64,000 nt of DNA from a virus (lineage: Duplodnaviria > Caudoviricetes), in the IMG/VR virus record IMGVR_UViG_3300021963_000022; one strand, written 5' to 3'. Numbering within the stretch: the stretch's first letter is position 1; the number at the start of each line of letters is the position of its first letter. A program made the translations under genes and the position numbers. A model generated the notes under the pieces. It made no database searches, had not been told where the DNA came from, and saw only the letters and a program-made list of their open reading frames with translations. Below are positions 57,490-61,979 of the stretch, in pieces.

Positions 57490-58080
57490 ATGGCAACTAA
57501 AAAGAGTACCCCTATTGATGAAAAATTTGTAGCACAAGACTTTGACTTGTTTGATGCACTTACAGCTATGGACAAGAAAGACTATGGTTATTATGATAGG
57601 CTAACAGAAGAACAACAAAAAAAGTTTGTTCCCTATATGATGACACATTGGATGAGTGCTATAAAAGCATCAGGTGAGTTGGGTGCATATTATGTAATGA
57701 GTACAGAGTGTGCGGCAAACAAACATCTGTTCAATGAATATGTACAGAGGCATCCTAAACTACAATGGATGATGTTATGTGCGGCCAGCCCTGGCATGGG
57801 TAAGCAATTCCATCAGTGGATACCTCACATGTCTGGCAAAGTTTCATCGTTAAAAGAACCAGCTAAAGCAAAAGACATTAAAGAATACTACAGTAAAGTA
57901 TACAAAGGTGCATCTAGTGATGATCTATCTGCCATCACAGAAGCATTTATAGATGACAACAAAAAAAAATGTTATCTAGCACAAATTTATCCTCATCTCA
58001 AACTATCTGACATAGAATTATTAAGCCAATTAATTACACATGCCGACATTGAAAAGTACGAAAGAAGCCGAGGAAACTAA
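57490..58080 (+). CDS. Possible clamp-loader small subunit (T4 gp62-like)
   Basis: Helical pattern with HPKLQW..LC...GKQFHQW, in a replication context. Start set at ATG 57490. Confidence 0.45.
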   Translation: MATKKSTPIDEKFVAQDFDLFDALTAMDKKDYGYYDRLTEEQQKKFVPYMMTHWMSAIKASGELGAYYVMSTECAANKHLFNEYVQRHPKLQWMMLCAASPGMGKQFHQWIPHMSGKVSSLKEPAKAKDIKEYYSKVYKGASSDDLSAITEAFIDDNKKKCYLAQIYPHLKLSDIELLSQLITHADIEKYERSRGN

Positions 58081-58759
58081 ATCGGTTAAGCACAGTTGTG
58101 AGTTTTGTAGCAGGGAGTTTATAAAAGAACGGACTCTGCTTACTCATATATGTGAGACTAAACATCGTTGGTTAGAAAAAGACAAGCAAAGCAATCGTAT
58201 TGCATATCAGTCCTTTGTACAGTTCTATACCAAACACACCGCAACTAAAAAGACAAAGACTCAGCTAGAGTTTATTAAGAGTCCATACTATATTGCATTT
58301 GCAAAGTTTGGAACATATTGTGTAGATACAAATTGCATCAACATCAGCAGGTATGTTGATTGGTTATTGCGAGACCAAATCAAGCTTGATAATTGGGCAA
58401 CTGACACTAACTATACTAAATTTTTGCAAGAGTATGTTAGAGTTGAGGATGCGTATGATGCAATTACTCGTAGTGTTCAGTATACAATTGAATTAGCACA
58501 AGCAGAACATATACTACCTCATGATATTCTAAGATATGGTAACGTAAATAAGATTTGTTATGCAATTACAACTGGTAAGATTAGTCCTTGGATGTTGTAT
58601 CAGAGTGACAGTGGTGTACATTTCTTAGACACATTAAATTCGGATCATGTTAAAATGATTATTGATTATATTAATCCAGAACAATGGACGTTAAAGTTTA
58701 GACGTGAGCCAGAACTTGTTACACAAATCAAGGAGTTATTGAATGCAGGCGGGTACTAG
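58040..58759 (+). CDS. Protein with N-terminal zinc finger
   Basis: CEFCSREF...LLTHIC (C2H2/C2HC-like). Confidence 0.7.
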   Translation: MPTLKSTKEAEETKSVKHSCEFCSREFIKERTLLTHICETKHRWLEKDKQSNRIAYQSFVQFYTKHTATKKTKTQLEFIKSPYYIAFAKFGTYCVDTNCINISRYVDWLLRDQIKLDNWATDTNYTKFLQEYVRVEDAYDAITRSVQYTIELAQAEHILPHDILRYGNVNKICYAITTGKISPWMLYQSDSGVHFLDTLNSDHVKMIIDYINPEQWTLKFRREPELVTQIKELLNAGGY

Positions 58760-58940
58760 GGTTCGCATTCCATGGCAAACAAATCATGACATTCCTACAT
58801 GGAATCAAAAATGTGCATGGGCGGTAGAGACATTTGGTTTGCCCGGAGATAAGTTTGATACACATGCAACAGAAGATTATATGGATTTTTACTTTAAGGA
58901 TGAGCGTGATGCTATTCATTTTGAGTTAAGATGGGGATAA
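58743..58940 (+). CDS. F-x-L-x-W family small protein
   Basis: Ends FYFKDERDAIHFELRWG. Confidence 0.75.
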   Translation: MQAGTRVRIPWQTNHDIPTWNQKCAWAVETFGLPGDKFDTHATEDYMDFYFKDERDAIHFELRWG

Positions 58941-58941
58941 T

Positions 58942-59157
58942 ATGGCTGATGTTATCCTATACATTACTGCTAAAAGAACTATGGAAATAGGCCATGAGTT
59001 ACGAAACATGGGTTGGATACAGGGTGTTGATTTTGATTATGCTTACTACCAAGAGAAGTATGACAACTTTAGCCATGACCCTATTGTAAAACGACATGCA
59101 AGATTTACCTTTTACAATGATAGCAATGCTAGTTATTTTGCATTGAGGTGGACATAG
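58942..59157 (+). CDS. F-x-L-x-W family small protein
   Basis: Ends FTFYNDSNASYFALRWT. Confidence 0.75.
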   Translation: MADVILYITAKRTMEIGHELRNMGWIQGVDFDYAYYQEKYDNFSHDPIVKRHARFTFYNDSNASYFALRWT

Positions 59158-59420
59158 TGGAGTTAATATTAGAAGAAGGTTTGATATTTGGGTCAAAATA
59201 TTATACTGCTTATCCTAGTTTTGATTGGGTATTAAATAATAAAAAGTCCAATCAATATTGGATACTAATGGAAGATTGGTGTATTGACACCTTTGGTCGC
59301 AGTGGCACCGATAATATGCCCGGAGTATATACTCCTAACGCACGATGGTATATTAACAACAGCAAGTTTTGGTTTAAAGAACAAAAAGATTTAGAATGGT
59401 TTCTACTAAAATGGCAGTGA
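59148..59420 (+). CDS. F-x-L-x-W family small protein
   Basis: Ends FWFKEQKDLEWFLLKWQ. GTG start. Confidence 0.75.
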   Translation: MDIVELILEEGLIFGSKYYTAYPSFDWVLNNKKSNQYWILMEDWCIDTFGRSGTDNMPGVYTPNARWYINNSKFWFKEQKDLEWFLLKWQ

Positions 59421-59632
59421 TCATAAAGGTTTACAAACCATGGGCATTAGTGTTACATTTACTGATAGAGAATGTAGGACCTATGTTACATAGTAACCCT
59501 ATAATCTTTTGGCATGGTAAAGGGTGGCATATGACATTTCATCCCGAGGTTGTTACTCAAGGTGAATCATATTGTAACATTCAATTTGATAGAGAAGCAG
59601 ACGCAATATGGTTTTCATTACGATGGGTTTAG
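59411..59632 (+). CDS. F-x-L-x-W family small protein
   Basis: Ends IQFDREADAIWFSLRWV. Confidence 0.7.
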   Translation: MAVIIKVYKPWALVLHLLIENVGPMLHSNPIIFWHGKGWHMTFHPEVVTQGESYCNIQFDREADAIWFSLRWV

Positions 59633-60493
59633 ATGATTATGAATAAGATTGGTGTTGATATTGGTAAAACAAAAATTGAGTGTTGTGTGTTATCAACTAC
59701 AAATGAGGTATTGTTTAGAGAACGTCTTCCTACAGGTTCTGTATACGAAGAAATAGAAGTTCTTTATAATAAAGCTATACTGTATACTAATACAACAGAA
59801 CATACATTGGGAGTATGTATGCCGGGATCCATAAGCAATAGAACCGGTTTAATGATAAATTCTAGCATAGGATTTTTAAACGATACAGATTTTGTAGGTA
59901 TGTTGGAAACTAGATTAAATCGTAAGATACAAATTGCCAACGATAGTCAATGTTTTGCTTTAGCAGAATCATTGTTAGGGGTAGGCAATGGATATAATAC
60001 TGTATTCGGAATGATATTAGGTACGGGTGTGGGAGGCGGCATAGTGATTAATGGAATGCTACATAAAGGATTTCATAACATAAGTTGTGAATGGGGACAT
60101 ACAACATTAGACCCTAGTAACAATATAATGTGTCGTTGCGGTAGAATTGGATGTGTAGAAACTTGGTTAAGCGGATCAGGAATTGACACATGGGCATACA
60201 ATCTTACAAATAAAAAACTATCCACAAAAGAATATATGGAAATGACAGAGATACAAGAATGTTTTTTAAATAAGTTTGGGTTGGCAGTTTCTAATTTAGT
60301 TCAAGTATTAGACCCGGATTGTATTGTAATTGGCGGAGGAATCAGTAATAATGATATATTATTCACTCAAGGCATTGAATCTGTTAAAAAGAATATATTC
60401 AATGATGAATTCAACACACCTATATATAGAGCAAAATTAGGTGACAGTGCAGGTGTAATTGGAGCGGCATTATTATGGCAAATGACATTATGA
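59633..60493 (+). CDS. ROK-family sugar kinase (fructokinase-like)
   Basis: GVDIGKTK, ANDSQCFALAE, LGTGVGGG, EWGH, C.CGR.GC.E and GDSAGVIGAA motifs. Confidence 0.92.
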   Translation: MIMNKIGVDIGKTKIECCVLSTTNEVLFRERLPTGSVYEEIEVLYNKAILYTNTTEHTLGVCMPGSISNRTGLMINSSIGFLNDTDFVGMLETRLNRKIQIANDSQCFALAESLLGVGNGYNTVFGMILGTGVGGGIVINGMLHKGFHNISCEWGHTTLDPSNNIMCRCGRIGCVETWLSGSGIDTWAYNLTNKKLSTKEYMEMTEIQECFLNKFGLAVSNLVQVLDPDCIVIGGGISNNDILFTQGIESVKKNIFNDEFNTPIYRAKLGDSAGVIGAALLWQMTL

Positions 60494-61038
60494 TTGACAT
60501 TGAAAGTTTAGATACAACACCTAACTGTGTTATCTTAACCATCGGTGCGGTACGATTCGATCCTAAAGGTAGTGGCGTAGTTGAACGATTAGAACTACGT
60601 CCTACAGTAGAGGATCAAACAGAAATATATAACAGGAGTATCAATGAAGATACATTACGATGGTGGAGTGAGCAGAGCCCTGAAGCACTTGAAGAAGCTA
60701 TGGGAGACGGGGGACGTTTGCCATTTAGCGAGTGCATGGAGACTCTTTATAAGTTCTGTTGGAACCGTCGTGCTGTTTGGAGTAATGGTGCATCATTTGA
60801 TTGTGTAGTTATGGAGTCTGCTTGGAGACAAACATCAGACAAACCTAATCCTATCCCCTGGCCTTTCTGGACAGTTAGAGATACACGTACATTATATGAA
60901 ATTGCAGGTGTTAGTCTTAAAGACGGTGGGCATTCTACTAGTCACAAAGCAGTAGAAGATGCTGAACGTCAGGCTATTGTTGTACAAAAAGCGTATACTA
61001 AATTAATTAAAGCAGGCCTAGTTGCACCACCTAAATGA
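60475..61038 (+). CDS. DEDDh 3'-5' exonuclease (stand-alone)
   Basis: MIDIESL (ExoI), SNGASFD (ExoII), RDTRT and HKAVEDA (ExoIII). Confidence 0.88.
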   Translation: MANDIMIDIESLDTTPNCVILTIGAVRFDPKGSGVVERLELRPTVEDQTEIYNRSINEDTLRWWSEQSPEALEEAMGDGGRLPFSECMETLYKFCWNRRAVWSNGASFDCVVMESAWRQTSDKPNPIPWPFWTVRDTRTLYEIAGVSLKDGGHSTSHKAVEDAERQAIVVQKAYTKLIKAGLVAPPK

Positions 61039-61640
61039 AATTTAATTCAGACATTGATATTGACTTTGGTGACCGAGATAAGATATTAAGTCTTATCAAG
61101 CATACGCCTGCGGCAATGCGTAAGGTTAATCCTATTCGTAAACATGCAACAGGTGTTCACGTGACTAATATACCCTACGATGCTATCAATGATATGGCTA
61201 ACATCGATTATTCTGAGGCAGAACAACGTGGATATCTCAAATTAGATATGTTAAATGTTTATGTTTATAACTATGTTAGAAGTGAAGAACATCTAAAGTG
61301 CTTAATGTGTGAACCTGATTGGGATAAGTTAAAGGATGCAAAGTTTGTAGAAAACTTGATTCACTTAAACAATCACTACAATAGCATTAAGAAAATGAAA
61401 GAACCTATAGATAGCATCCCTAGACTAGCTATGTTCTTGTCTATCATTCGTCCTGCAAAGAAACACTTAATTGGTTTAACGTGGGCTGAAGTTGCAAAAA
61501 CTGTATGGGATAAAGGCACTGATGGGTATAGTTTTAAGAAAAGTCACGCAATTGCATATGCTCATTTAGTTGTCGTACATATGAATTTGATTGATGAATT
61601 AGGGTATCCTCTTGACCAGGGTAATACTTTTACGCTTTGA
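61035..61640 (+). CDS. Miniature DnaE-like (family C DNA polymerase catalytic core) protein
   Basis: DIDIDF, RKHATGV, GYLKLDML, IIRPA and GYSFKKSHAIAYA occur in the DnaE order within 201 aa. Confidence 0.8.
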   Translation: MKFNSDIDIDFGDRDKILSLIKHTPAAMRKVNPIRKHATGVHVTNIPYDAINDMANIDYSEAEQRGYLKLDMLNVYVYNYVRSEEHLKCLMCEPDWDKLKDAKFVENLIHLNNHYNSIKKMKEPIDSIPRLAMFLSIIRPAKKHLIGLTWAEVAKTVWDKGTDGYSFKKSHAIAYAHLVVVHMNLIDELGYPLDQGNTFTL

Positions 61641-61979
61641 CTTACGTTTGCTTAGTTCTAACATGCTACATATAGGACCATGTAATATAGTCAGACTCTT
61701 ATTGTTAAATGTTCTTAGATAGGGTTTAAAGATCATCCAATCTTCTTTTAAGAACATATTAATGGGCACTAATCTATTAGATTCCCACCACCATATATCC
61801 CCTAGTTCTAAGAATTTTTCTCGTATTACTTGGTCTATAATAGATCCATAGTCGTAGATGGTAGTTACTACATCATCTCTATTTTGAACTATGCCTACAT
61901 AATCTTGGCCTGCGTATGAGCAGACCGTTATAAAGGGGTGGTTCTCGGTTAGTCGTTTGAAAAAGTCGTTATGAAGCAT
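61599..61979 (-). CDS. Hypothetical protein
   Basis: 126 aa. Minus-strand TAAATA at 61981-61986 and 61998-62003. Converges on the mini-DnaE gene. Confidence 0.75.
   Translation of the reverse strand: MLHNDFFKRLTENHPFITVCSYAGQDYVGIVQNRDDVVTTIYDYGSIIDQVIREKFLELGDIWWWESNRLVPINMFLKEDWMIFKPYLRTFNNKSLTILHGPICSMLELSKRKSKRKSITLVKRIP

Follow-up and report, generated by a model that had tools for sequence, protein, structure and literature searches.

We analysed a 64,000-nucleotide stretch of DNA (the window) from an uncultured aquatic phage, the IMG/VR record IMGVR_UViG_3300021963_000022, and conclude, with a probability of about 0.88, that a 201-amino-acid (aa) protein encoded in it is the C-terminal unit (C-unit) of a two-polypeptide minimal DNA polymerase III (Pol III) alpha. 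Such split enzymes belong to the group 2.2 (Rak2/PA5oct/Atu_ph07-like) jumbo phages. Together with a separately encoded N-terminal unit (N-unit), the C-unit would rebuild one active site, in an enzyme accessory to a family-B polymerase (PolB). The homology of the two units to DnaE, the exact point at which they are broken apart, the conservation of their residues, their co-occurrence and their natural fusions carry this reading, from which we infer that the two units assemble and are active, and what they do in the phage. Within a contig of 180,035 bp, the window takes up C1:50739-114738 on the minus strand. CheckV rates this contig 52% complete; it covers only about half of the genome, so that all domain negatives below apply to the scope of the fragment. 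The two genes concerned are:

61035-61640, plus strand: probable C-unit (C-terminal, Mg2+-binding palm and mini-fingers) of a split minimal Pol III alpha, 201 aa; identified by phrog_11778, profile and fold.

C1:10990-11511, minus strand, equivalent to window-relative 103228-103749, plus strand, and outside the window: probable N-unit (N-terminal, nucleoside triphosphate (NTP)-binding), 173 aa; identified by PF07733 and fold.

The open reading frame (ORF) of the C-unit has its own stop, and its ATG overlaps the TGA of the ORF at 60475-61038 as ATGA, as an earlier note on this DNA had described. Searches with the single protein sequence (Pfam, NCBIfam and phmmer against the PDB) gave no match, and homology was visible only to profiles, PHROGs and folds. 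In PHROGs, the C-unit matched phrog_11778, annotated as ‘DNA polymerase’ (E 2.7e-57, profile length 197), and its FKKSH region weakly matched full-length DnaE-type phrogs. When a profile (A1) built from 84 diverse members was compared with the PDB, every match was to a DnaE chain (E 7e-5 to 4e-4), and the matches formed three colinear blocks, which placed DIDID at 401-405 of E. coli DnaE together with KLD at K553/D555, IRP at ~639-640 and FKKSH at 757-760; all of the motifs that the earlier note had listed are present and in DnaE order.

The alignment equates D6, D8, D10, K69 and D71 of the C-unit with D401, D403, D405, K553 and D555 of E. coli DnaE, places R139-P140 at ~639-640, and equates K169-S170-H171 with K758-S759-H760. 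Among the 84 members used for the profile, D6, D8, K69, D71, R139 and P140 were invariant (84/84 for the Asp and Lys residues), while D10 was found in 83/84 and H171 in 82/84. D401, D403 and D555 are universal in the C-family and D405 is specific to DnaE (Timinskas et al., PMC3919608). Since D10 matches the latter, the metal ligands are D6, D8 and D71. The catalytic triad is thus retained, as had been claimed, but it is not the D8/D10/D71 originally named. H171 corresponds to H760, the proposed steric gate of the E. coli enzyme against ribonucleotides (PMC8485763). Its retention favours the use of deoxynucleoside triphosphates (dNTPs) rather than ribonucleoside triphosphates by an enzyme built on the C-unit, and disfavours the synthesis of signal nucleotides from NTPs, one of the roles suggested previously.

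Structure prediction gave the same assignment. The AlphaFold2 (AF2) model of the C-unit had a predicted local distance difference test (pLDDT) score of 94, and its top 16 matches in Foldseek were all C-family polymerases. Aligned over residues 1-200 with VIA-align, the model matched PolC (Z 9.7), DnaE1 of Mycobacterium tuberculosis (Mtb; 9.3), Taq DnaE (9.1) and E. coli DnaE (7.6, residues 398-793), and the best unrelated match reached only Z 3.7. Profile and fold therefore both match C-family polymerases only, and the classification of the protein as a C-family, Pol-beta-like nucleotidyltransferase stands. The ORF is real and strongly conserved, and its product is a core of palm and fingers like that of DnaE (Pol III alpha).

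The C-unit is shortened internally. Its ~200 aa span what DnaE needs ~400 aa for (E. coli 398-793), with ~200 residues deleted, including the thumb and a fingers segment of ~90 aa (E. coli 642-739), in agreement with the internal deletions proposed in the earlier note. The reported absence of PHP and HhH regions also held: no PHP, HhH (HHH_6) or finger Pfam match was found in either half or in the 180-kb contig. Cultured jumbo phages with a full-length relative number 96 by tblastn (~190-200 aa, 40-47% identity); PA5oct, Atu_ph07, Phosso and phages like Rak2, GAP32 and 121Q are among them. In protein collections, C-unit sequences fall into more than 7,500 clusters when grouped at 90% identity and into 386 at 50%, and nearly all are 180-230 aa long.

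The first residue of the C-unit lies only a few positions ahead of the DxD strand, and the protein lacks a GS/GRGS triphosphate-binding loop, which occurs only in the separate 173-aa protein. This N-unit was found in a Pfam DNA_pol3_alpha search of the contig, and its gene lies 41.6 kb downstream of the C-unit gene, on the same strand, adjoining a gene for an RFC-like clamp loader. It matches PF07733 at positions 16-97 (E about 3.7e-10 to 6e-9), and its C-terminal end, which reads ...GVGRGSS...DEFLK, aligns to residues 383-454 of Taq DnaE and 346-392 of the E. coli protein. GRGSS was invariant in all 43 sequences compared (phage N-units and fused forms). The AF2 model of the N-unit has a pLDDT of 82, and in VIA-align its residues 74-173 matched only DnaE/PolC (Z 6.8-10.5, with Z 9-10.5 to DnaE 279-393; best unrelated match 3.2); its Foldseek matches were weak (best E 0.04). 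The search for missing DnaE parts that had been suggested thus recovered a GRGSS-bearing N-unit from the same contig, and it is the fallback idea of the earlier note, that the 201-aa protein is one subunit of a split polymerase, that fits.

The two halves meet precisely. Matches to the N-unit stop at residue 393 of E. coli DnaE, 413 of the Mtb protein, 965 of PolC and 455 of the Taq protein, and the C-unit model starts at ~396-398, 416, 968 and 458, respectively. As the end of one unit and the start of the other are only a few residues apart in four structures, the two genes abut along the DnaE sequence. They also travel together. The N-unit is present in 90 cultured-phage records, compared to 96 for the C-unit, with matching genus tallies, and in all five large related IMG/VR contigs with a C-unit, an N-unit follows on the same strand after 36-47 kb. 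In the PA5oct-type phage PAC2, C-unit, N-unit and PolB likewise come in this order. Grouped at 90% identity, N-units too form more than 7,500 clusters in protein collections.

Much shorter than DnaE and broken in two, the pair might be taken for pseudogene pieces, the decaying remnant of what was once a complete dnaE of phage or host. This has a negligible probability in our estimation. Thousands of homologues keep stable lengths (~190-216 aa for the C-unit and ~168-174 aa for the N-unit), the C-unit family numbers 386 clusters at 50% identity and has invariant catalytic residues, and the break point and gene order are constant from Pseudomonas to Sinorhizobium phages. A check for full-length dnaE relatives, proposed together with the original claim that the protein is not a decaying fragment, found none among the C-unit homologues.

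In a few cases the two units occur in one chain. Three metagenomic clusters from different assemblies (P0289, P0391 and P0392) are uninterrupted single ORFs of 375-376 aa, with loci at L014:1066-2193 and L099:519-1649. Their N-terminal part is 35% identical to the N-unit (E 2e-14) and their C-terminal part ~40% identical to the C-unit, in frame, and PF07733 crosses the junction. These single-chain forms have the modules of the split forms, N before C, joined by a 10-residue linker in place of the stop and start. They are rare (3 clusters compared to >7,500 split) and were seen only on short contigs. That such fusions occur naturally speaks strongly for one functional enzyme made of both halves.

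A phage-specific minimal Pol III alpha has been described from sequence in group 2.2 jumbo phages by Iyer, Anantharaman, Krishnan, Burroughs and Aravind (2021, Viruses 13:63; PMC7824862). In their description, its N-terminal part is an NTP-binding protein and its C-terminal part a second protein that binds Mg2+ and template; the genes of the two lie far apart, other Pol III domains are lacking, and a family-B polymerase accompanies them. The authors proposed this enzyme as a model of the ancestral one (PMC7824862). The phage analysed here shares both stand-alone units, far apart, with no other Pol III domains found on the contig. It also has the jumbo background of UvsW-type helicase, DnaB and primase, and the same homologues occur at 40-47% identity in PA5oct, Atu_ph07, Rak2, GAP32 and 121Q-type phages. 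It differs in its uncultured aquatic source, in having a DEDDh exonuclease gene just upstream of the C-unit gene, and in that PolB is not on the 180-kb fragment. The arrangement has thus been known from sequence since 2021, and the copy in the window is a further case of it, with nothing categorically new.

Compared to the cellular enzymes of known structure (PDB 2HNH and 5M1S, E. coli; 2HPI, Taq; 3F2B, G. kaustophilus PolC), the phage pair has in common the Pol-beta-like palm, the residues equivalent to D401/D403/D555, K553 and D405, the GS loop and the K758-S759-H760 helix, and both halves match the fold at Z 7-10. DnaE has ~1160 aa in one chain, whereas the phage proteins have 374 aa in two. 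Missing from the pair are the PHP domain, the thumb, the 642-739 finger segment, the beta-clamp motif, and the HhH, OB and tau-binding domains, and it has Glu at the position of R390.

How might such a reduced enzyme work? We propose that the C-unit would supply the palm beta-sheet, the metal ligands D6/D8/D71, K69, R139 and the K169-S170-H171 fingers helix. The N-unit would supply a helix-GRGS-helix, in which the R142-G143-S144 loop would hold the triphosphate of the incoming dNTP. Non-covalent association of the two chains would give a heterodimer in which a Pol-beta-like palm active site is restored without PHP, thumb, clamp-binding, HhH, OB or tau-binding parts. With no thumb, clamp motif or 642-739 finger segment, distributive addition of dNTPs to a primed template would be expected, in support of the family-B replicase, for example in gap filling, primer extension or repair. 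Both genes are found in replication modules, which counts for a replication-related enzyme: the C-unit gene is flanked by genes for a UvsW-like superfamily 2 (SF2) helicase, a Toprim primase and DnaB, and the N-unit gene by that for the RFC-like clamp loader.

Several points weigh against a split Pol III alpha of this kind. Where cellular DnaE has Arg (E. coli R390, Taq R452), all 43 sequences compared have Glu, which is E170 in the N-unit; the C-terminal K173 of the N-unit is also invariant. We take R390/R452 to contact the dNTP triphosphate, and with Glu in its place nucleotide binding by the split enzyme may differ from that of cellular DnaE. Without the thumb and ~90 aa of the fingers, stable binding of the primer-template is not assured. 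Neither Pfam nor tblastn with a PA5oct-type PolB found a family-B polymerase in the 180-kb contig, which is a fragment. In two of the five large related contigs PolB lies 25-30 kb beyond the N-unit, and it is therefore expected beyond the end of this contig. Finally, a literature search found no biochemical data on any member, and Iyer et al. (2021) was the only paper on the system that it turned up.

Some of the same features would suit a different function, in which the two chains do assemble, but as another nucleotidyltransferase, catalysing untemplated tailing, primer-like synthesis or a DNA-modification step. The lack of a thumb and of a clamp-binding motif, the truncated fingers, the invariant Glu in place of Arg at the R390 position, and a phage that has, or should have, a complete family-B replicase are all compatible with this. 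Against it count the steric-gate His and the KSH helix, which are both conserved, the invariance of R139-P140 (E. coli ~639-640), and the location of the genes among replication genes. We consider it unlikely, and favour the split Pol III alpha.

The ORF whose stop overlaps the C-unit start encodes a nuclease:

60475-61038, plus strand: stand-alone DEDDh 3'-5' exonuclease, Rv2179c-like, 187 aa; PF16473 and phrog_255; stop overlaps the C-unit start (ATGA).

The assignment is clear, both from Pfam (PF16473, E 2.1e-33, 115.9 bits compared to a cut-off of 27) and from PHROGs (phrog_255, ‘exonuclease’, E 6e-42). D8, E10, D109, H157 and D162 were invariant in 42 sequences, giving an intact DEDDh set. 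We surveyed the neighbourhood of the C-unit gene in 80 related IMG/VR loci (C-unit identity 53-77%), of which 75 could be assessed for linkage to the exonuclease and 5 could not. The exonuclease gene abuts the C-unit gene in 28 of the 75 and lies 190-1250 bp upstream in a further 19, whereas there is no exonuclease within 5 kb upstream in the remaining 28. Linkage depends strongly on relatedness: it was found in 45 of 54 assessable loci at a C-unit identity of at least 62%, and in 2 of 21 below. Two metagenomic relatives retain the 4-bp overlap despite differences in their other upstream genes. Beyond these loci, the Pfam exonuclease family is absent from the PA5oct-type phage PAC2, and in Phosso its one member lies 107 kb away. 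The family is present in 551 phage records, and the best-matching ones listed are genomes of 35-70 kb, none of them jumbo.

Because linkage is nearly confined to relatives at or above 62% identity, the coupling to the exonuclease is a real trait of one aquatic subclade and not of the mini-polymerase in general. The proofreading-type exonuclease described in the earlier note is thus an intact DEDDh enzyme, but not a general partner (47/75 loci, nearly all in this clade). That note had combined the two genes into a two-gene module, in which the 201-aa protein is a self-sufficient minimal polymerase with a coupled DEDDh proofreader. The ATGA overlap and the frequency of close linkage, which persists even where other upstream genes differ, are what one would expect from such a module. 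The loci without the exonuclease, its absence from PAC2 and its distant location in Phosso are not, and neither is the spread of the family through phages that, among those listed, mostly have genomes of 35-70 kb and are not jumbo. The GRGS half of the palm is absent from the 201-aa protein and is always encoded separately or fused to it. A self-sufficient polymerase is therefore very improbable. For the split polymerase, it is possible that the exonuclease proofreads.

Two further genes are conserved around the C-unit gene:

61599-61979, minus strand: convergent 126-aa gene, phrog_11637; it and the C-unit gene overlap by 42 bp at their 3' ends.

58040-58759, plus strand: C2H2 zinc-finger protein, 239 aa, phrog_11058 (E 1.5e-53); conserved neighbour upstream of the C-unit gene.

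The window, the PA5oct-type phage and Phosso have a common gene order of UvsW-type helicase, 166-aa gene, 210-aa gene, C2H2 zinc-finger gene (239 aa), C-unit, convergent 126-aa gene, 253-aa gene, primase and DnaB. The 126-aa gene is the most constant neighbour, being just downstream on the opposite strand in 78 of the 80 related loci as well as in the PA5oct-type phage and Phosso; it gave no Pfam or Atlas lead. The C2H2 gene was upstream of the C-unit gene in 58/80 loci, and adjoins it directly in PAC2 and in the lineage of P0397 (L100:627-1226). In that lineage, the 200-aa gene immediately before the C-unit gene was considered as a neighbouring N-unit, but proved to be this C2H2 zinc-finger gene. 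The C2H2 protein is possibly a DNA-binding accessory.

Between the C2H2 gene and the C-unit gene, the window has four small ORFs in tandem, a gene for a ROK sugar kinase and the exonuclease gene, which we read as insertions. The four tandem ORFs (65, 71, 90 and 78 aa; 58743-59632, plus strand) share a similar aromatic-x-L-[RK]-W tail, and resemble an array of paralogues that entered between the C2H2 and kinase genes. The ROK-family sugar kinase (59633-60493, plus strand; Pfam ROK, E 9e-60), which lies within the replication module, had fructokinase as its best NCBIfam model, under the cut-off. It was present in only 1 of the 80 related loci and therefore looks like a recent auxiliary metabolic acquisition. 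A separate observation concerns a related 150-kb contig, which besides the split version encodes a 559-aa PHP-less DnaE-like protein near PolB (L098:1890-3566; G002:C1:54889-56565), in which DNA_pol3_alpha is present as a full domain (E 1e-42), together with a finger domain (E 1e-16).

The alpha-epsilon core of E. coli Pol III likewise combines a C-family polymerase with a separate DEDDh 3'-5' exonuclease, and in the phage the two genes adjoin. The likeness has limits: E. coli epsilon is DnaQ-type, whereas the phage exonuclease is Rv2179c-like, a family named as exoribonuclease, and its linkage is clade-specific. Moreover, epsilon docks on the PHP domain of alpha, which is missing in the phage pair. 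A complex prediction with the N-unit, the C-unit and the exonuclease, in which the exonuclease was scored, returned 0.00 and no verdict, and weighs neither for nor against binding. It is a speculative idea, to which we give a small chance, that the exonuclease of the aquatic subclade was taken over as a proofreader that acts in trans on the split mini Pol III, making a PHP-less, three-polypeptide alpha-epsilon-like core, and that more broadly the C2H2 protein and the product of the 126-aa gene may be extra subunits replacing thumb or DNA-binding parts.

The locus is widespread in water. Its DNA had no match to cultured phages by blastn. Metagenomes from about a dozen studies (lake, freshwater, drinking water, estuary and samples labelled as marine) contain DNA nearly identical to 60475-61979 (83-97% of sampled words). 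In metatranscriptome libraries, three short identical contigs, from two studies, fell inside the C-unit gene and one short contig inside the 126-aa gene; there was no cover over the exonuclease gene, which is uninformative. These contigs are a weak hint that the C-unit gene is expressed, as DNA carry-over is possible.

No smaller version of the bacterial replicase core is known than the split mini Pol III, which is very abundant in aquatic metagenomes. It lends itself to testing, as it offers an exact break point, single-chain fusions that can be expressed, a steric-gate His that predicts the use of dNTPs, and a subclade linked to an exonuclease.

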